DNA of 47,591 bases from an uncultured Gammaproteobacteria bacterium (GTDB lineage: Bacteria > Patescibacteriota > Patescibacteriia > Magasanikbacterales > GWA2-37-8): NCBI GenBank assembly GCA_964516735.1, contig CAZEYR010000003.1, positions 1 to 47,591 on the forward strand, read 5' to 3'. This document shows, one piece after another, positions 1,495 to 17,115 of the stretch (positions are counted from its first letter, which is position 1; every line of letters starts with the position of its first letter). The notes under the pieces are model-generated. The model saw only the letters and a list, made by a program, of their open reading frames with translations. It was not told where the DNA came from and did no database searches. Position numbers and translations under genes: made by a program.

Positions 1495-2331
1495 ATGCTT
1501 TTTGGAGCTCATGTTTCAATCGCCGGCGCTCTCACCAACGCTCCGGTCAACGCCAAAAAAATTGGCTGCGAGGTTTTTCAAATCTTTACCAGATCACCCC
1601 AAGGAGGCCATATACCGCCTTGCGACCAAAAAATCGGTGCTAAATTTAAAAAAACCTGTCAAGAAAATCAGCAAAAAGAATGGTATGTCCACGCCCCATA
1701 TTTTATAAATTTTGCTTCAGCCAACAATCGCATTTATCGCGGATCAATCTATACTATTCGACAAGAGCTAGAAAGAGCCAACCTGCTTGGGGCCAAATAT
1801 TTAATGACCCACCTTGGTAGCTATAAAGATCTTGGCGAAAAAGCTGGTTTCAAACAGCTTGTTTCCGGGCTAAGCGATGTTTTAAAAGACTACACCGGTG
1901 AAACCAAGTTTTTAATAGAAATTTCAGCCGGCTCTGGAAAAATAATTGGTGACACTTTTGAAGAAATTGCCGAAATAATCCACCATCCCAAATTAAAAAA
2001 ATATAAGCTGGGAGTTTGTTATGACACTCAGCATGGCTTTGCCTCTGGTTATGATATTCGCGATACCGAATCCGCCACAGAAACTTTAACAAAATTTGAT
2101 CAAACAATCGGACTAAAAAATCTTAAACTGTCCCATTGTAACGACTCGCTCACCGAAATCAACTCGCATAAAGACCGCCACGCTCATCTGGGCGAAGGCT
2201 TGATCGGCAAAAATGGTTTTACAGCGTTGCTTCGTCATACAAAACTACCTGACATCAATTTTATTTGTGAAACCTCATCTGACAAAGTCGCGCAGGATAT
2301 TAAATTATTAAAAAAAATAAGAGTCTCCTAA
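1495..2331 (+). CDS. nfo: deoxyribonuclease IV (AP endonuclease family 2, Endo IV)
   Basis: 278 aa. N-terminal FGAHVS, then HAPYFIN, THLGS and the C-terminal HDRHAHLGEG pattern typical of Endo IV TIM-barrel enzymes. Confidence 0.85.
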   Translation: MLFGAHVSIAGALTNAPVNAKKIGCEVFQIFTRSPQGGHIPPCDQKIGAKFKKTCQENQQKEWYVHAPYFINFASANNRIYRGSIYTIRQELERANLLGAKYLMTHLGSYKDLGEKAGFKQLVSGLSDVLKDYTGETKFLIEISAGSGKIIGDTFEEIAEIIHHPKLKKYKLGVCYDTQHGFASGYDIRDTESATETLTKFDQTIGLKNLKLSHCNDSLTEINSHKDRHAHLGEGLIGKNGFTALLRHTKLPDINFICETSSDKVAQDIKLLKKIRVS

Positions 2332-2332
2332 T

Positions 2333-3106
2333 ATGAAAAAAGAAACCGCCGCCGCCCTTAAGATCATCCAACAAGCTAATCTTCTTTTAGTTAAAAACTT
2401 TCAGACTCTGGGATTAAAAAAAGTACAATTTAAATCAAATGAAGAAATCGTTACCAATGTCGATTTTTTAGCCGATCAATTAATTACAAAAAAATTAATC
2501 CAAATGTTTCCGACCGACAATATTATCAGTGAGGAATCAGAAAAAATAAACAAAAAAAGCGAATATACTTGGTATGTTGATCCTTTAGATGGCACCACCA
2601 ATTACTCCCTTGGTTTGCGGGATTTTTCTACCTGTTTAGCTCTTGTTAAAAATAAACAAATTATTTCTGGCGTCATTGGCATTCCCTTGGCTAAAGAATT
2701 ATATTGGGCCGAACAAAACACTCCGGCTTTTTTAAACGGCCAACCCATCCACGTTTCTGTCGCACAAAAAAACAGGCCGCGCTATATGCTTTTGTTGTGC
2801 GGTGGACACTCTGCTGCCGGACAGTCTAATTTTAAAAAGGTTGTTGCCCAATTAAATCCAAAGATTTTTCGATTCCGCATTTTATCTTCAGCCGGAATTG
2901 AAACCACGGCCGTTGCTTGTGGTCGAGCTGACGGTTTTATTTCTCCAGATATTCGACCTTGGGATGTTTTGCCCGGTGTTTTACTGGTTCGAGCCGCTGG
3001 CGGACGCGTTACTAATTTCAAAGGCGAAGAATGGGGGATAGAGGATAAAAACATTGTTGCTTCCAACGGTTTAATTCACAAAAAATTATTAGAATTGGTT
3101 AAATAA
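2333..3106 (+). CDS. inositol monophosphatase family protein
   Basis: WYVDPLDGTTNY metal-binding motif and a downstream PWD..PG motif; 257 aa. Confidence 0.85.
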   Translation: MKKETAAALKIIQQANLLLVKNFQTLGLKKVQFKSNEEIVTNVDFLADQLITKKLIQMFPTDNIISEESEKINKKSEYTWYVDPLDGTTNYSLGLRDFSTCLALVKNKQIISGVIGIPLAKELYWAEQNTPAFLNGQPIHVSVAQKNRPRYMLLLCGGHSAAGQSNFKKVVAQLNPKIFRFRILSSAGIETTAVACGRADGFISPDIRPWDVLPGVLLVRAAGGRVTNFKGEEWGIEDKNIVASNGLIHKKLLELVK

Positions 3107-3108
3107 TT

Positions 3109-3333
3109 ATGAAAATACCCATCAAAGTCTTGCCACGCTCTTCAAAAAATGAGGTCATTGGAGAAATGTCCGACAAAACCCTCAAGGTTAAATTAACCGC
3201 CCCACCGATAGACGGCGCGGCCAACCAAGCCCTAATCAATCTACTGAGCGACGAGTACAACGTGCCAAAAAGCAAAATAAAAATAGTCAGGGGTCTGACT
3301 AGTAAAAATAAACTAATAGAAATTTTAGATTAG
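3109..3333 (+). CDS. DUF167 / YggU-family small protein
   Basis: 74 aa. The pattern LKVKLTAPPIDGAAN..L...L......KSKIKIV.G..S..K matches the UPF0235 family. Confidence 0.7.
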   Translation: MKIPIKVLPRSSKNEVIGEMSDKTLKVKLTAPPIDGAANQALINLLSDEYNVPKSKIKIVRGLTSKNKLIEILD

Positions 3334-11473: not shown

Positions 11474-12988
11474 TTATTCTGATTTAAAACGATATTGCAA
11501 GGCCTCCGCCAAGTGGTGAGATAATATATTACCACTTTTTTCTAAATCTGCAATAGTGCGGGCCAATTTAAGGATGCGACTGTAGCCACGAGCGGAAATG
11601 TTGTTTTTCTTGGCGGCTAGGCGCATTAATTCAAAACCGGCAGTGTCCAATTTACAAAATTTTTGTATTTCTTGATTACCCATCTCACTGTTGGTTTTTA
11701 ATCCGAGTGGGCGAAGCCGATCGGTTTGAGCTTGTCTGGCTTGTTCCACTCGGGCGCGGATATCGGCTGAACTTTCGCTAGTTTCTTCGGCAGAAAATTT
11801 TTCAAAATTAATTCTTGGTACTTCAATGTTTAAATCAATTCTATCCAAAAGCGGGCCGCTGATTTTTCTTCGGTAATTTAAAATTTGATTGGTGGTGCAG
11901 CTGCATTCTTGTTCGGGATCAGATAAAAATCCGCACGGACAAGGATTTTGTGAGGCGACTAAAATAAATCTAGCTGGAAAAGTAATGGTGCCACTGGCTC
12001 TAGCGATAGTCACTTGACCGTCTTCCAAAGGTTGGCGCAAGGCTTCTAGCGCCGGGCGATTAAATTCCGGCAATTCATCTAAAAATAATACACCACGATG
12101 AGCCAAGGATATTTCACCGGGTTTAATTTTTCCGCCACCGCCAATTAAAGAAACTCCAGAGGCCGTGTGGTGGGGAGAGCGAAAAGGTTGGGTTTGGATT
12201 AATTTTTTACCCAACAATCCGGATACGGAATAGATTTGAGTAATTTCCAAAGATTCTTCTTGTGTTAGTTTTGGTAAAATTGTGGGCAGGGTGCGGGCGA
12301 GTAGTGTTTTGCCGGATCCGGGTGGTCCGCTCATTAAAATGTTGTGAGCACCGGAAGCGGCGATTTCTAAGGCGCGCTTGGCAAAAGTCTGGCCATTGAT
12401 ATACGACATATCTAGGGTGTATTCTAATTCCGGGTTTTCTGTGAGATTGGTACTCTTGGTGTGTTTTTCTATTTTTTCCTCGCCGATTAAATGGCGAATA
12501 ATTTGTTTTAAATTTTTTACCGGATAAATATCTAAGCCTTCCACCAAACCGGCTTCGGGTGCGTCGTCGTAAGGGACAAAAATTTTATCAAAATAATTAT
12601 TTTTAGCATAAATCGCCATCGGTAAAATACCGTTGGTATGGCGAAGTGTGCCGTCGAGAGCCAGTTCGCCCAAGAGCAACGCCGAGTCAATATTAATGTC
12701 CAGCTTGTTGAGGGCGGCAATTAGTCCGACCGCCATTGGCAAATCATAAATCGTGCCGTCTTTAGGTAAATCGGCCGGAGAGAGATTGATTAAAATTCTA
12801 AAATTAAAGGGATAATCAAACCCGGAATTTTTTAAGGCGGAATGAATGCGCTCGCGCGCTTCTTTAATGGAAATGTCAGCCAGCCCGACAATGTTAAAAG
12901 CAGTTTGTCCTTTATTTATATCTACCTCAATTTCCACCGGCAAACAGTTGATACCAACCGGTGCGGCGGAATGAAGTCGGTAAAACAT
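11474..12988 (-). CDS. YifB/ComM family Mg-chelatase-like ATPase
   Basis: 504 aa. N-terminal Lon-protease-like domain, Walker A GPPGSGKT, LFLDELPEF, and a C-terminal helical domain. Confidence 0.9.
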   Translation of the reverse strand: MFYRLHSAAPVGINCLPVEIEVDINKGQTAFNIVGLADISIKEARERIHSALKNSGFDYPFNFRILINLSPADLPKDGTIYDLPMAVGLIAALNKLDINIDSALLLGELALDGTLRHTNGILPMAIYAKNNYFDKIFVPYDDAPEAGLVEGLDIYPVKNLKQIIRHLIGEEKIEKHTKSTNLTENPELEYTLDMSYINGQTFAKRALEIAASGAHNILMSGPPGSGKTLLARTLPTILPKLTQEESLEITQIYSVSGLLGKKLIQTQPFRSPHHTASGVSLIGGGGKIKPGEISLAHRGVLFLDELPEFNRPALEALRQPLEDGQVTIARASGTITFPARFILVASQNPCPCGFLSDPEQECSCTTNQILNYRRKISGPLLDRIDLNIEVPRINFEKFSAEETSESSADIRARVEQARQAQTDRLRPLGLKTNSEMGNQEIQKFCKLDTAGFELMRLAAKKNNISARGYSRILKLARTIADLEKSGNILSHHLAEALQYRFKSE

Positions 12989-12990
12989 AA

Positions 12991-13428
12991 TTATTGTTTG
13001 GAAGAAAATAAATTATTTTTGAAAATATACAGAAGAAAACCGACAACAATCATGACGTCGGCGATGTTTATAATCGCCGTTAAGAGTAGAAAGTAATCGA
13101 CAATATAACGATAAATAACCCGGTCGTAGAGGTTGGAAAGAGCGCCTAACAACACTGGAATTAAAAAATAAGAATGATTTTTTTGAGAAAAAATTAAATA
13201 ACCAAGCAAAAGCAAAACCGGCACTGTCAATCCAATAATTAGTAAATTAGGCATGGGCAAGCTAAAAGCCACACCATGATTAAAAGATGGTTGCCAATTA
13301 AAAAATTCCACCAAACGATTGCTGATTGGTGTAGAAGAGGTGAGGGCGAGGTGTTTTAAATAGCGATCCAGAAATAAAAAAAGCCCACTTATAACCAAGG
13401 TTAAAAATAAACGGGCTCTATTATTCAT
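12991..13428 (-). CDS. lspA: lipoprotein signal peptidase (signal peptidase II)
   Basis: 145 aa, four hydrophobic segments, NHGVAFS and IVDYF motifs. Confidence 0.8.
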   Translation of the reverse strand: MNNRARLFLTLVISGLFLFLDRYLKHLALTSSTPISNRLVEFFNWQPSFNHGVAFSLPMPNLLIIGLTVPVLLLLGYLIFSQKNHSYFLIPVLLGALSNLYDRVIYRYIVDYFLLLTAIINIADVMIVVGFLLYIFKNNLFSSKQ

Positions 13429-13431
13429 AGA

Positions 13432-13833
13432 TTATACTTCTTGGGTGATAGCTTTTTTACAACTTACACAAGCACTAGAAGTTGGGCGGACAGCCAAACG
13501 TTTTTCTTCAATCGGTTTACCACAGTATTTGCAAATGCCATAATGGCCTTTTTTAATTCTTTCCAGAGATTGTTTGATGTCGCGCAAGGTTTTTTCTAGA
13601 TTTTCTTCCAAAGGAATGCGGGCCGCGTATTCGGCCACTTCCGCGGCATTTTCGTCTTCTTTGTCTCCGTATTCTGGGAAAGCACTATTAAAATCATCTT
13701 TAACATGTGGATTTTTTTCAGCAAATTTGGTAAGTTCTTTTTCAATTTTCATTTTTTGTTTTAACAGTTCTTTCTCTACTTTTTCCAAAAACTCCTGAGA
13801 CAGGGTGGTTTTGGCAGTGGCTTTCTTGGCCAT
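13432..13833 (-). CDS. DksA/TraR family C4-type zinc-finger protein
   Basis: Coiled-coil N-terminal half plus CKYCGKPI...x17...CVSCK. The start is set at MAKKATAK (13833) because the predicted -10 overlaps the upstream ATG at 13872. Confidence 0.75.
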   Translation of the reverse strand: MAKKATAKTTLSQEFLEKVEKELLKQKMKIEKELTKFAEKNPHVKDDFNSAFPEYGDKEDENAAEVAEYAARIPLEENLEKTLRDIKQSLERIKKGHYGICKYCGKPIEEKRLAVRPTSSACVSCKKAITQEV

Positions 13834-13870
13834 ATGTTTGAGGTTAACTAAACAATTTGTATATGCCCAC

Positions 13871-13900
13871 ATTATAACATCGATTATTATGTTTCGTCAA
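13871..13900 (-). promoter_or_regulatory. putative promoter of the dksA-like/lspA/yifB/ppiB gene string
   Basis: Minus strand: TTGACG, 18 nt, TATAAT. Confidence 0.5.
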
Positions 13901-13921
13901 TAAATTCATCAATAAAAAATA

Positions 13922-14256
13922 TAAAAAAATAAGGGCGCAGAAACCCGATAATCAAATTGATATGTGGTCCTCGCCCTTAGGTAGCTGTCTAAGGCGAGAT
14001 GTAACAGACCAAATGAGGTCGTGACATACGAAACACCTTGACAGAAACCGCCTACCGCTCAGGGGTATTAACCTCGGTGCCAGTAAGACTCATTGAGCCA
14101 AACTAGCTATTTGGGGTGAGGTTACCCGTAAAGAAGTTAGGCAAGCCACTATTTTTATTTTACTATGCCTTTTTATTAAGAATAGTGGTCGACTTACTTC
14201 CTTTAAAGTAGCAGTGATGGTCGGTTGTTAGGTTTTGCAAAGAGCTTATCTTTACG
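13922..14256 (-). ncRNA. structured RNA of about 330 nt; possible RNase P RNA (identity uncertain)
   Basis: This block is richer in G+C than its flanks and has no plausible ORF. It has its own consensus promoter and a 3' hairpin plus U-run (AAGGGCG ... CGCCCTT then TTATTTTTTT on the minus strand). Minus-strand motifs occur in RNase P-like order: AAAGGAAGUAAGUC, ACGGGUAACCUCACCCCAAAUAG, GGUAGGC, GUCACGAC. I could not reconstruct a canonical P4 helix or specificity domain. Confidence 0.45.
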
Positions 14257-14262
14257 TTATAT

Positions 14263-14291
14263 ACTATACCATATTTCGTGGAACATGTCAA
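14263..14291 (-). promoter_or_regulatory. promoter of the ~330-nt RNA
   Basis: Minus strand: TTGACA (rc of 14286-14291), 17 nt, TATAGT (rc of 14263-14268). Confidence 0.55.
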
Positions 14292-14388
14292 GCATTAGTA
14301 GTTTAGTATATTTTTATGCTAAGATTAGCCAATAAGTAGCTAGCAGTAGCGAAAATTTTTGTTTACACTATTGTAAACAAACAACCAC

Positions 14389-14397
14389 TTATCCACA
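14389..14397 (+). promoter_or_regulatory. perfect DnaA box TTATCCACA
   Basis: Exact 9-mer, followed by TTGTCCACA at 14431-14439, upstream of the LTD-protein gene. Confidence 0.5.
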
Positions 14398-14532
14398 GAA
14401 GAAATCATTTTTGCACTATTTTGTCCACAGTTGTGTAGACTAGTGTATACAAAAATTAAAATTTTAGGATTTTATGGATCATTGTGTTAAAATATATACA
14501 AACTAATTAATTTCTAAATATTTTAATATTTT

Positions 14533-17115
14533 ATGAGGGGTAAAATATTGGGACTGGCGACTTTGGGGATGGTCGGCAGTTTTTTTATTTATATTTTAGG
14601 AGCGGGGGCGGCACCTAATGACATTATAATCAATGAAATTGGGGCTTATGAGCCAACCGGATATGAATGGGTAGAGATCTGGAACAAAGGAACAGAGCCG
14701 GTAGACATAAAAGATTGGAAGTTTTATGAAAGTGACGGCCCAAACCACAAGAGTTTTGTCCTTAAAAGCGGTGTTGATTATCTTATAGATCAGGGAGAGT
14801 ATGCGGTAATTTGCCAAGACGATATTAAATTTTTAGCCAAATATTCCAATTTTAGTGGCACCTTATTAGACTCAGCGTGGAATGGGTTAAACGAAGCGGG
14901 TAAAGAAATCGGTCTAAACGATGCCAAGGGCAGCACAATTGAAAGATTTACTTATATTCCCGCTCCTAATTACTCTTTGCAAAGAAAAGATTCAAATTTT
15001 GTGGACTATACCAGTAATAATTGGCAAGAACATATTAGTGGGAATACAGTGGGGGCGATTAATGTGTTTGAGCAAACACCGTCAGATAGCGCAAATGATC
15101 AAGGTGGCATGGCTGACCAAGCCGAAGAGGTACTTAGTCAGCCGGTAGTGGAATCGGTAATAGAAAATGTGGAGCCGGTGGTGGAGTATAGAGACATTCA
15201 ATTAAATGAGATTGTAGTTAATCCTGAAGAAGGAAATGAGTGGGTGGAGTTGTATAATTTTGGTAATTTGGCCGCTGGTTTAAGTGGATGGTTGTTGTGT
15301 GATGCCAGAAATACCAATTCTACTTGTAAAAAAATAAATGGCGATATTGCCAAAGGAGAATGGTTAAAATTGGACTTGCACACCACTACTTATTTAAATA
15401 ATGATGGTGATAGTGTGATTTTAAAAAATCCATCTGGCACAGTGGTTGACCAAGTGGCTTACGATGAAGAAAAAATCGGATTGCCGGCTGCTGGGCAAAG
15501 TTTGGTTAGAAAAGAAAATGGCGGCTGGGCTATCTCCGAGACAATCACTCCGGGTGAGAAAAATATTATCACTGAAGAAGTGATAGGTGAAAATAATAAA
15601 GCAATTGCCGTTACTAGCACCGTAAAAACAATTAGCAAAACAAAAAATCAAATTGGCGATAAAAAAGACGAAGTAAATATCGTTTGGAAAGGAAAAATTC
15701 CAACACAGGGTGCGCCACAAGAAAAAATAACTTTTGATGTTTCTGCCTCGGCCGATCCGCGCGGCGGAAATATTTTTTATAACTGGGATTTTGGCGATGG
15801 GAGTAATTTGGATGGTGGGGTGGTAGAGCATGTTTTTGCTACTTCTGGTTTGTTTATGGTTAAGGTTACGGCCACCAGCACGGTTGGCACGGTAGACGAA
15901 AAAAGTTACAAAATTTCTATTGGAAAAGAATTAACAGTGAGTAATAATGGAGTGGTGATTACCGAAGTTTTACCCAATCCAAATGGAGATGACAGTGAGG
16001 AGTTTATTGAGCTATACAATAAAAGCAAGCAAACTATTGATGTCGCGGGTTGGTTGCTTAAATATGACGACAAGGATTATATTTTTCCAGAAAAAACCAT
16101 AATTCACGCTGATAGTTTTTTAATTTTTAAAAGAGCGGTTACTAAATTTAGTTTGAACAATCAGGGTGGAGAAATTGAACTTTTAACGCCGGATAAAAAT
16201 TTGGCGAATAAAATAGAATATGGTGTTGCTAAATCCGGACAGAGTCATAATTATTTTAATGAACAATTTTGGGTGAGTGAGCCAAACCCTAGAATTTTGT
16301 CGGTGTCAGTCGAGGCGGAATTTTTAAATGATAAAACAAGCAGCGGGGTAAACAAAGAATTTGCAGGGGCGAGTCAGACCGGCAGTTCATCCAAAACTTC
16401 CGGACAGTGGGTTAGGGTGACTGGGGTGGTGAGTGTGGTGCCAAAAATTTTTGGCACGCAGTATTTTTATATTTCTACTATGGATGATGCTTATCAGGTT
16501 TATCAATATAAAAAAGATTTTCCAGAATTAAAAAATGGCGATGAAATTTCGGTGCAAGGTAATTTGGGGTTAATCGGGCAAACGAAAAGAATAAAAATAA
16601 AAAGCCGGAATGATATAGACGTTTTGTCGACAGAAAACAATTTAGTGGCGGTAGAGATGACGCCGGAAGAAGTGGCGCAAGAGGAAACAATTTTGGGAAG
16701 TTTGGTGAAAATTAATGGGGAGATCACGGAGATTAAAAGCAATTATATGTATGTGGATGATGGGTCGGCAGAAATTGAGGTGTATTTCAAGCAAGGAGCG
16801 GAAATCGATAAGAAAAAATTTGCTGAGGGTCAGCTAGTAGAGGTGGTGGGAATAGTAGGAGAAAACAAAAATGAAAAACAAGTTTGGCCAAGATCTAACG
16901 AAGATGTGGTGGTAATGGGAGTGTCAGATGATTTATTAAAAAAACAAAATTTAAATAATGAGAATAAAGAGTTGCCAAAAAAGTATTTGGGAGTGGTGGG
17001 TGGTGGGGCGGCAATGATGCTTTTGGGATTTTTGGCTCGGGCGCGAGCAGGGATAATAAAAAACACCGCTCAAAAGGCGGCGATAATAATTGGTGGTTGG
17101 TTTAAGAAAAAATAA
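14533..17115 (+). CDS. cell-surface protein with three lamin-tail domains, a PKD domain, an OB-fold-like module and a C-terminal membrane anchor
   Basis: N-terminal signal/TM. Three segments fit the LTD pattern (I.INEI.......EWVE.YN....V.L.GW.L). The PKD-like stretch reads FDVSASADPRGG.IFYNWDFGDGS. A WVRVTGVV... segment resembles nuclease-associated OB folds. C-terminal hydrophobic helix plus KKK. Confidence 0.8.
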   Translation: MRGKILGLATLGMVGSFFIYILGAGAAPNDIIINEIGAYEPTGYEWVEIWNKGTEPVDIKDWKFYESDGPNHKSFVLKSGVDYLIDQGEYAVICQDDIKFLAKYSNFSGTLLDSAWNGLNEAGKEIGLNDAKGSTIERFTYIPAPNYSLQRKDSNFVDYTSNNWQEHISGNTVGAINVFEQTPSDSANDQGGMADQAEEVLSQPVVESVIENVEPVVEYRDIQLNEIVVNPEEGNEWVELYNFGNLAAGLSGWLLCDARNTNSTCKKINGDIAKGEWLKLDLHTTTYLNNDGDSVILKNPSGTVVDQVAYDEEKIGLPAAGQSLVRKENGGWAISETITPGEKNIITEEVIGENNKAIAVTSTVKTISKTKNQIGDKKDEVNIVWKGKIPTQGAPQEKITFDVSASADPRGGNIFYNWDFGDGSNLDGGVVEHVFATSGLFMVKVTATSTVGTVDEKSYKISIGKELTVSNNGVVITEVLPNPNGDDSEEFIELYNKSKQTIDVAGWLLKYDDKDYIFPEKTIIHADSFLIFKRAVTKFSLNNQGGEIELLTPDKNLANKIEYGVAKSGQSHNYFNEQFWVSEPNPRILSVSVEAEFLNDKTSSGVNKEFAGASQTGSSSKTSGQWVRVTGVVSVVPKIFGTQYFYISTMDDAYQVYQYKKDFPELKNGDEISVQGNLGLIGQTKRIKIKSRNDIDVLSTENNLVAVEMTPEEVAQEETILGSLVKINGEITEIKSNYMYVDDGSAEIEVYFKQGAEIDKKKFAEGQLVEVVGIVGENKNEKQVWPRSNEDVVVMGVSDDLLKKQNLNNENKELPKKYLGVVGGGAAMMLLGFLARARAGIIKNTAQKAAIIIGGWFKKK

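Follow-up and report, generated by a model that had tools for sequence, protein, structure and literature searches.

A conserved structured RNA ahead of a dksA-like operon in Patescibacteria: a probable stand-alone RNA gene of a new family

Introduction

What is encoded in the 660-bp spacer that separates a dksA-like open reading frame (13432-13872, minus strand) from an LTD gene (14533-17115, plus strand)? The question was raised by a window of 47,591 nucleotides, the whole stretch of patescibacterial DNA that was analysed here. The initial annotation of the window described an independent RNA on the minus strand of the spacer and left two readings: an RNase P RNA that is atypical or has undergone strong reduction, or a different, unclassified structured RNA. 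The second reading has been borne out by single-copy conservation, by covariation and by the anatomy of promoter and terminator, and we are confident that the gene is real, that it stands alone and that its structured RNA belongs to a new family. What the RNA does is a separate matter, in which a function in trans has to be weighed against regulated read-through into the dksA-like operon and against several known RNA classes.

Anatomy of the locus

The features of the locus are listed in Table 1. The G+C content is 0.45-0.51 at 13950-14150 as compared with 0.16-0.37 in the flanks, and the sole open reading frame in the spacer is a 42-codon TTG frame that starts inside the -35 box. The G+C-enriched, ORF-free block, the near-consensus extended -10 promoter on the minus strand and the other features described at the outset were all found in their places. 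In a promoter scan the sequence TTGACA-17-TATAGT was the top match in the region, and a promoter of the type TTGAC-N16-19-TAnnnT, ending 29-72 nt ahead of the core of the RNA, occurs in 48/48 homologous loci.

Table 1. Coordinates of the RNA, its flanking elements and the downstream operon
Feature	Position	Strand	Description	Basis
RNA, ~334 nt	13923..14256	-		ends inferred from promoter and U-run
5'-terminal hairpin	14237..14255	-	loop GUUCUUU or GUUCAUU in relatives	fold
Three-way-junction core	14054..14227	-		model R1, covariation
Closing stem P1	14215-14211 with 14058-14054	-	ACUGC with GCGGU; P1a extends outward	
Arm P2	14201-14132	-		
Arm P3	14127-14063	-	near-invariant internal loop GGUAACCUCA / GAGGnAAUACC	
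P4-P5 long hairpin	13985..14044	-	3' strand with conserved AUCUCGCC (14000-13993)	
Intrinsic terminator	13923..13978	-	stem AAGGGCG.../...CGCCCUU (13978-13931), then 7-U run (13929-13923)	fold
Sigma-70-type RNA promoter	14263..14291	-	TTGACA, 17 nt, TATAGT, TG extension	11/12 matches
Promoter-proximal palindrome	14358..14383	.	TGTTTACA....TGTAAACA	read from sequence
Two DnaA boxes	14389..14429	+	TTATCCACA (14389-14397, exact) and TTGTCCACA (14421-14429)	~100-140 nt upstream of -35 box
Distal palindrome	14431..14451	.	TGTATACACTAGT..TACACA type, flanking DnaA boxes	read from sequence
Separate dksA-like promoter	13871..13900	-	TTGACG, 18 nt, TATAAT, TG extension; just past U-run	11/12 matches
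DksA/TraR-type zinc-finger gene	13432..13833	-	133 aa from conserved MAK start	
lspA	12991-13428		downstream of dksA-like gene	
ComM/YifB-like ATPase gene	11474-12988		downstream of lspA	

At the 3' end, the terminal hairpin with a U-run that had been noticed ahead of the next promoter is clear in the fold. Its stem covaries, with 91.8% of the cells paired and 25 double-change cells, a value equalled by 0/500 shuffles, and a U-run follows the RNA in 47/48 loci. A simple terminator scanner called no terminator in the region because the stem carries a long branched loop.

The elements upstream of the promoter are conserved as well. An exact TT[AG]TCCACA box precedes the RNA in 43/48 loci of the host family and in 30/30 loci of the sister family, and a palindrome of the TGTATACACTAGT..TACACA type, often in two copies, is located at most 420 nt upstream of the core in 35/48 homologous loci. 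The cluster of DnaA boxes was also considered as a replication origin and rejected, as the GC skew reaches its minimum near 6 kb, in the interval from dnaA to dnaN. The promoter-proximal palindrome surfaced in the cmscan search as a perfect hairpin in a chance miRNA match.

Downstream, the dksA-like gene follows the RNA on the same strand, directly in 45/48 loci and beyond inserted DNA in two more. The remaining locus stops at a contig edge; hence the RNA lies upstream of dksA-like/lspA in 47/47 assessable loci. Such constant same-strand linkage, which extends to the sister family and apparently to the class, would be unusual if the two genes had nothing to do with each other, and it speaks for co-transcription or a common control. 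Three genomes have the RNA and dksA separated by orphan DNA of 0.5-1.7 kb and have retained both the RNA and its terminator. A dksA-type promoter lies between terminator and dksA in 37/48 host-family loci, including that of the source genome. Outside the host family, a separate dksA promoter was seen in 7/30 and 10/29 loci, frequencies comparable to background and hence not clearly enriched. The dksA 5' UTR of the source genome contains UAACCUCAAAC, a repeat of a P3 strand, which is missing from the relatives and is therefore a coincidence.

A fold supported by covariation

The 334-nt strand folds with a minimum free energy of -105 kcal/mol, compared with -76.9 +/- 4.8 kcal/mol for shuffled sequences (z = -5.84). 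From 5' to 3', a terminal hairpin is followed by the long closing stem P1a/P1b, which leads into a three-way junction with P2 and P3 as its arms, and then by the P4-P5 hairpin and the terminator hairpin. The long hairpin CCACUAUU...AAUAGUGG that the initial annotation had singled out is present and forms the distal part of P2.

Examination of the homologous loci upheld the fold. In alignments of 48 homologues, which had been fitted to the covariance model and come from mutually related genomes, 90.6% of the cells of the core are paired vs 27-47% in slid controls, and compensatory changes occur in 26/33 core pairs, a count matched by 0/500 shuffles. Because covariation across the 48 homologues supports the fold, the structure of the RNA is far beyond chance. 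The outer helices were assessed by comparing strands within and between species. P1a duplexes formed from strands of the same species have a mean energy of -7.6 kcal/mol vs -4.1 kcal/mol across species, a difference reached by 0/1000 permutations. In folds of the individual sequences the P4-P5 region is a single hairpin in 40/42 homologues, with a median of 22 bp, and the two P4 strands pair with a mean energy of -11.5 kcal/mol within species as opposed to -7.2 kcal/mol when permuted (0/1000 permutations). The terminator likewise displays species-specific complementarity (0/1000 permutations). When the 3' domain was aligned with MAFFT, RNAalifold recovered the base of the terminator alone and missed P4-P5, so that the evidence for this hairpin consists of the per-sequence folds and the permutation tests. 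The loop of the 5' hairpin (GUUCUUU/GUUCAUU) was found in 30/47 host-family 5' regions.

Distribution of the RNA

Simple searches uncovered few homologues: a blastn search with the RNA as query recovered two from 60 relatives, and an exact motif pattern found ten. A covariance model of the RNA core (model R1) was needed for the others. It detected exactly one full-length copy in 80/100 genomes of the host family, representing 31/41 genera. Within the order, 51/59 host-family genomes contain a match vs 1/91 genomes of other families. The sister family yielded one 28-bit match and four weaker ones, all of them syntenic and with P1/P3 motifs in common. One sister-family locus, G152, the site of a diverged homologue, displays the same layout and the P1/P3 signatures, with two tandem terminators ahead of dksA and an A/C-rich linker of the CAAAAACAAA type; the host-family version usually has no A/C linker.

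Upstream of dksA, a matching layout of DnaA boxes, palindromes, a strong promoter, a structured RNA and a terminator was observed in 29 families elsewhere in the class and at 30 loci of the sister family. Compared with the dksA-upstream RNAs of other lineages, the host-family RNA is short (~330 nt) and has a long P2 arm. A linker of the CAAAAACAAA type is present on the sense strand in 12/29 loci of other families vs 1/29 on the antisense strand. A second model, R2, was derived from a MAFFT alignment with only 3 RNAalifold pairs, which makes it in effect a sequence profile, and gave the G152 homologue 15 bits. Neither R1 nor R2 produced a significant match outside the order, including the dksA-upstream regions of the 29 other families searched with filters off. 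Across families, the pattern ACUGC..GGAUU..AAUCC..GCGGU matched 1/29 loci, and the 5'-loop motif followed the promoter in 3/29 loci vs approximately one expected. As the models have no significant match outside the order, homology beyond the sister family is plausible and no firmer than that; what is in common there is the layout and the A/C linker.

A proposed function in trans for a stable RNA

The best overall explanation of these findings, which we prefer by a modest degree of belief just above even, is a gene in its own right that encodes a stable, highly structured non-coding RNA of ~330 nt, which belongs to an uncatalogued family and acts mainly in trans. For the trans-acting mechanism taken by itself, we regard the chances as balanced. 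Under this explanation the RNA would be the nucleic-acid component of a ribonucleoprotein with a housekeeping or regulatory role, and the junction together with the near-invariant, asymmetric P3 loop (GGUA-A-CCUC opposite GAGG-nAA-UACC) would provide the binding platform. Synthesis of the RNA may be tuned by DnaA and by a protein that binds the flanking palindromes. That the RNA associates with RNA polymerase or with DksA is a guess prompted by the gene neighbourhood. Much of the diversity of bacteria is accounted for by CPR/Patescibacteria, whose tiny genomes have shed many "universal" parts, including the SRP. A well-folded RNA of at least 330 nt that is maintained in one copy and at a fixed address in such tiny genomes is unlikely to be dispensable.

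Transcription data come from one small metatranscriptome, in which a 151-nt contig maps to 13968-14116, inside the RNA, and is the sole contig on a 1.3-kb stretch. It is a weak hint that the RNA is transcribed, as it could derive from contaminating DNA. Two further RNA runs did not cover the stretch, a result that carries no weight.

Literature searches turned up no account of this RNA, and it is absent from Rfam 15. The closest parallels are among the orphan large structured RNAs of bacteria, namely the raiA motif RNA, OLE, ROOL and GOLLD, the biochemical function of which was not known at the time of their discovery. With these RNAs it shares a promoter and a terminator of its own, a covarying fold of several helices and conservation within a lineage, and its length falls in the range of the raiA motif RNA. 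It differs from them in its occurrence in Patescibacteria, in its fixed address between DnaA boxes and dksA-lspA and in being single-copy in each genome, and a cmscan search with all Rfam 15 models revealed no match to them in sequence or structure. Large RNAs of unknown function are few in bacteria, and the RNA would extend their list by a new family. Tests for a protein partner or a ligand could start from its three-way junction, from the invariant P3 loop and from the competition between P4 and the terminator.

A bolder proposal, which we consider improbable, would make the RNA a housekeeping RNA specific to Patescibacteria and distributed class- or phylum-wide. DnaA would govern its synthesis according to replication and growth state, and on RNA polymerase it would cooperate with the DksA-like factor, either as a polymerase binder like 6S or Ms1 or as a read-through sensor for dksA-lspA. 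If true, a new RNA-based link would tie the initiation of replication to the control of transcription in bacteria without SRP or detectable 6S RNA.

Possible regulated read-through into the dksA-like operon

Regulated read-through into dksA is a live rival to a stable RNA acting in trans, and we assign it a smaller but still appreciable likelihood. According to this scenario, the RNA is the cis-acting leader of the dksA-lspA-comM operon, a riboswitch-like element or an attenuator that senses a protein, a tRNA or a ligand. Sensing would fall to the three-way junction, and the 5' and 3' strands of P4 and the 5' and 3' strands of the terminator would form a 1:2 / 2:3 / 3:4 switch. Termination would release the 330-nt RNA as a by-product, and dksA would be expressed more highly when the strong, DnaA-flanked promoter is read through. 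The scenario includes the possibility that a stable RNA is combined with regulated read-through.

Such a leader agrees with the location of the RNA, which directly precedes dksA in the same orientation in the host family as well as in the sister and other families, and with the lack of a clearly present separate dksA promoter outside the host family. Further points in its favour are found at the 3' end. The two competing hairpins from which the initial annotation derived a switchable terminator are both present in the sequence, and the 3' strand of P4 can pair with the 5' strand of the terminator (CUCGCC/GGCGAG) in 86.9% of the cells vs 32-47% in slid controls. Alternative duplexes formed within a species have a mean energy of -11.56 kcal/mol, on a par with P4, and show a small species-specific excess (8/1000 permutations). 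Visual inspection of alignment A5 revealed single compensatory cases: CACGCC with GGCGUG in locus L061, and GUUCUUCYCCU with AGGGAGAAC in loci L060 and L064.

The idea of a switch is half supported, in that its complementarity is conserved and as strong as that of P4 but covariation between the columns is nearly absent. Only two double-change cells were counted, a number reached by 190/500 shuffles, and the shuffled pairing amounted to 85%. At least four independent changes at the central G of the terminator are compensated within the terminator and not in CUCGCC. Arguing further against a leader is the separate dksA promoter, an extended -10 promoter with 11/12 matches that lies past the 7-U terminator in the source genome and in 36 other host-family loci. 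The RNA and dksA tolerate being separated by insertions of 0.5-1.7 kb, G152 carries its two terminators in tandem, and a sensor of ~280 nt would be unusually large. The arrangement resembles trp-type attenuators in that the 3' strand of P4 pairs with either its own 5' strand or the 5' strand of the terminator, with similar energies. It departs from them in that the 2:3 pairing is nearly devoid of covariation and a separate promoter precedes the downstream gene. Neither a leader peptide nor a T-box nor a known aptamer was detected, and no riboswitch or T-box family of Rfam matched.

Comparison with known RNA classes

No Rfam 15 family matches the RNA at the gathering score, for which the whole window was searched with RNase P included, or at E<=10. 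In the cmscan search of the region 13800-14450 with all 4227 Rfam families at E<=10 and permissive filters, there was no match to RNase P, tmRNA, SRP, 6S, T-box or riboswitch models.

The known classes include 6S RNA and the mycobacterial Ms1 RNA. The RNA would then be their functional analogue, binding RNA polymerase, possibly together with the DksA-like secondary-channel factor, and replacing a 6S RNA that is undetectable; we judge this unlikely. Ms1 has ~300 nt, a length near that of the RNA. The RNA has a strong, constitutive-type promoter and is of the abundant, stable type, and the gene that invariably adjoins it encodes a member of the DksA/TraR family, an RNA-polymerase-binding factor. 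No 6S RNA was found in the source genome, which is weak evidence since the 6S model is insensitive and was positive in just 5/14 control genomes. The fold argues against an analogue, as it consists of a branched three-way junction and separate hairpins and not of a rod with paired 5' and 3' ends and a large central bubble. RF00013 likewise gave no match at E<=10, and gene neighbourhood alone is thin support.

The RNase P reading can be regarded as refuted, as a canonical RNase P RNA gene is present elsewhere in the genome and the locus matches no RNase P model; we leave it a negligible probability. The case for it consisted of rnpA, reported in the window by the initial annotation, and of short strings that resemble CR-I and the P10-P12 region of the specificity domain in an RNA of about the length of type A RNase P RNA (RF00010). 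A search of the 0.8-Mb source genome for a canonical rnpB located a full-length type A RNA on contig 25 (7117-7510, 148.7 bits, model positions 1-367); like tmRNA and 5S rRNA, it is encoded on a contig other than that of the locus studied here. The RNA itself fails the RNase P covariance model, and its covariation-supported fold has neither a P4 pseudoknot nor P1-P3. The RNase P-like strings do exist in the sequence. They are not motifs of the family, however, as they are unconserved among the 48 homologues: the AAGUC of the CR-I look-alike varies, and the look-alike GUCACGAC falls in the variable P5 hairpin. For annotation, these strings are to be treated as chance resemblances.

A divergent SRP RNA, suggested by the blank result of the small and large bacterial SRP RNA models (RF00169/RF01854) in the source genome and 40 relatives, is just as improbable, because the partners of such an RNA are missing: the Ffh and FtsY domains were not found in the source genome, the Ffh M domain occurs in 0/41 relatives and in 0/46 genomes drawn from 45 of the families in the class, the source genome has no SRP54 GTPase domain and 0/61 genomes sampled phylum-wide exceed the cut-off for it, no open reading frame of at least 150 aa in the genome contains a DTAGR motif, the two SRP subunits are missing from many CPR bacteria (PMC8080830), and at the locus neither a helix 8 motif was visible by eye nor an SRP model matched at E<=10. 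The identities tmRNA (RF00023) and 5S rRNA (RF00001) were rejected in the same way, with no match at the locus and both genes elsewhere in the genome, the tmRNA gene on contig 13 (6061-6465, 158 bits) and the 5S rRNA gene on contig 6 (488-594, 78 bits).

The transcription unit

The dksA-like gene and the LTD gene are separated by a 660-bp spacer. It carries one minus-strand transcription unit, and the elements that the initial annotation had recognized in it, a promoter, a G+C-enriched block devoid of ORFs and a hairpin followed by a U-run, are all present as described (see table). The G+C content of the RNA stretch of ~334 nt is 0.45-0.51 as compared with 0.16-0.37 in the flanking DNA, and the only reading frame within it is a 42-codon TTG frame beginning in the -35 box. 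The RNA strand folds with an energy of -105.1 kcal/mol versus -76.9 ± 4.8 kcal/mol for dinucleotide shuffles (z = -5.84). The ATG that starts the longest ORF of the dksA-like gene (13872-13870) overlaps the -10 hexamer of the promoter predicted for this gene; translation from the conserved start (MAK...), the ATG at 13833-13831, yields a protein of 133 rather than 146 amino acids.

Location of the features discussed in the text (positions in the window unless another contig or locus is named)
Feature	Location	Strand	Remarks
Palindromes, TGTATACACTAGTGTATACA-type	14431-14451; 14358-14383		bracket the DnaA boxes
DnaA boxes	14389-14397; 14421-14429		~100-140 nt upstream of the RNA promoter; TTGTCCACA at 14421-14429 by pattern search
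RNA promoter	14291-14263	minus	TTGACA, 17 nt, TATAGT, TG extension; 11/12, top promoter match of the region
Metatranscriptome contig	13968-14116		151 nt
RNA terminator	13978-13923	minus	long hairpin, 7-U run
dksA-like gene promoter	13900-13871	minus	11/12; directly after the U-run
RNase P RNA, type A, full length	contig 25, 7117-7510		148.7 bits
tmRNA	contig 13, 6061-6465		158 bits
5S rRNA	contig 6, 488-594		78 bits
Orphan insertions	L108 (genome G120), 880-1746; L109 (G020), 1544-3250; L050 (G035)
A/C-only tract, sister family	L110, 1470-1500		between the short P2 and P3

Identity of the RNA

In a cmscan search with all 4227 families of Rfam 15, six tRNAs were the sole matches in the whole window at the gathering score, and between 13800 and 14450 a threshold of E<=10 yielded three chance miRNA/snoRNA matches and none to an RNase P family. 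The genome (40 contigs totalling 0.80 Mb, completeness 98.7%) contains a canonical RNase P RNA on contig 25, which is one half of what the initial annotation had itself named as speaking against its first proposal. A reduced or atypical RNase P RNA in the spacer is therefore rejected. The fallback, a different, unclassified RNA, turned out to be right. No description of the RNA was found in the literature searched. It was concluded that Rfam 15 lacks the family to which this RNA belongs, that the fold of the RNA is well supported and that its genomic address is remarkably fixed.

SRP RNA and 6S RNA were not detected in the genome. SRP RNA is not expected here because its protein partners were not found: searches for the Ffh M domain were negative in 41 genomes of the order and in 46 genomes of 45 families of the class, and the DTAGR motif occurs in no ORF of at least 150 aa of the genome. 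Neither an SRP54-type GTPase (Ffh/FtsY) nor SRP RNA was found in the genome, in 40 relatives or in 45 other class families, and none of 61 genomes sampled across the phylum exceeded the cut-off for the SRP54 GTPase domain. The phylum-wide extent of this absence may merit documentation, although the lack of both SRP subunits in many CPR bacteria has already been published (PMC8080830).

Structure and covariation

The RNA is built around a three-way junction with the closing stem P1 and the arms P2 and P3. In the 48-sequence model alignment 90.6% of the cells form standard pairs, as opposed to 27-47% with the partners slid, and compensatory changes occur in 26 of the 33 pairs (307 cells changed on both sides), figures that are biased towards structure since the alignment is model-fitted and the genomes are related. 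None of 500 shuffles reached any of the structure measures. Despite the model-fitted alignment, the helices are convincing, given how the slid controls compare and how varied the pair types are. P1a, the outward extension of P1, pairs the 12 nt preceding ACUGC with the 12 nt following GCGGU; its mean duplex energy is -7.6 kcal/mol within the same species, a value reached by 0 of 1000 permutations, and -4.1 kcal/mol across species. The corresponding values for the P4 strands are -11.5 and, after permutation, -7.2 kcal/mol (0/1000). In the terminator stem 91.8% of the cells are paired, with 25 double-change cells, and none of 500 shuffles was as good. In 40 of 42 homologues the 66-80 nt from P1 to the terminator form a single long hairpin, P4-P5, with a median of 22 bp and with apical stems that are unrelated in sequence. 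Near-invariant nucleotides are concentrated in ACUGC/GCGGU, in ACUUCUU after P2, and in the asymmetric P3 loop (GGUA-A-CCUC / GAGG-nAA-UACC).

Distribution

Two homologues, both syntenic, were retrieved by blastn. A motif pattern derived from the three sequences was searched in 240 genomes of the order; it matched 10, each of them a member of the window's family, with no match for the reversed control. R1, a covariance model covering 157 positions of the core, has exactly one full-length match in 80 of 100 family genomes (73/88 high-quality genomes, 31/41 genera); the only genome with two matches is an 8%-contaminated assembly. No match was found in near-complete genomes of the family genera g26 (0/6), g29, g31, g5, g2, g33, g34, g36, g18 and g59. 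In a sample of the order R1 matched 51 of 59 family genomes versus 1 of 91 from the nine other families, and it matched none of the 148 genomes taken from elsewhere in the class, outside the family.

The single match outside the family (G152, 28 bits) is in a sister family. Its locus presents, in order, the palindromes, three DnaA boxes, a consensus promoter, the 5' hairpin and ACUGC, followed by a short hairpin that replaces P2, an A/C-only linker, GGUGACCUCA...GAGGUAAUCACC...GAGCGGU, the 3' hairpin domain, terminators and the dksA-like gene. Judged by this layout, the sister-family RNA is a true homologue. With the R1 filters off, 30 sister-family dksA loci gave five weak matches, each syntenic in both position and strand, and exact DnaA boxes lie upstream in all 30. 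A gap of 500-800 nt that is poor in ORFs and has a DnaA box at the distal end is also common upstream of dksA in 29 further families of the class, and a CAAAAACAAAAA-type A/C run occurs upstream of dksA in the sense direction in 12 of 29 loci versus one in antisense. The A/C-only tract is single-stranded and 14-24 nt long (loci L076, L077, L080, L084, L085, L089-L091, L094, L096, L097, L102). Covariance models demonstrated no homology beyond the sister family.

Stand-alone gene or dksA leader

Weighing promoters, terminators and insertions against linkage and complementarity, we see about an even chance that the RNA is a stand-alone, mainly trans-acting molecule. All 48 loci have its promoter, 47 of them the terminal U-run, and 37 a separate TTGAC-type promoter between terminator and dksA. 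In three genomes 0.5-1.7 kb of orphan DNA, whose ORFs have no Pfam matches, separates the RNA from dksA-lspA, yet RNA and terminator are kept; the sister-family locus has two terminators in tandem. In a small wastewater metatranscriptome, the sole contig on 13400-14700 lies wholly within the RNA, a weak hint of its transcription rather than proof.

An attenuator or a dual function, which would link the RNA in cis to dksA-lspA, is a tentative reading of rather low probability. In all loci that can be judged, dksA-like/lspA follows the RNA on the same strand, and the competing 3' hairpins proposed in the initial annotation stand as regards complementarity: in 86.9% of the cells the P4 3' strand, through its conserved AUCUCGCC, is complementary to a conserved GGCGAG in the 5' strand of the terminator, and their duplex (-11.6 kcal/mol) equals P4 in strength. 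Covariation for this pairing is scarce: only two double-change cells occur, shuffled pairing reaches 85% and 190 of 500 shuffles do equally well. Conservation of the two strings accounts for nearly all of the pairing; a small species-specific excess persists (8/1000 permutations), and several terminator substitutions are compensated inside the terminator and not in CUCGCC. In other families no clear enrichment of a separate dksA promoter was seen, so that in the wider RNA class a leader function may apply.

Upstream region and replication origin

Judged from the GC-skew minimum and the dnaA-dnaN pair, oriC lies near 6 kb. The DnaA boxes preceding the RNA promoter are therefore not the origin but a conserved satellite cluster. 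The bracketing palindromes occur in 35 of 48 family loci and in the sister-family locus, and they are probably the operator of some regulator. RNA synthesis may be controlled by DnaA and a palindrome-binding protein.

Some 8 kb separate the RNA from the origin, and its transcription runs head-on to the replication fork; the whole RNA-dksA-lspA-comM block is transcribed towards the GC-skew minimum 8 kb away. In five other family genomes (G020, G079, G099, G108, G109) dnaA is located 8-32 kb from the RNA, in four of them in the same relative orientation.
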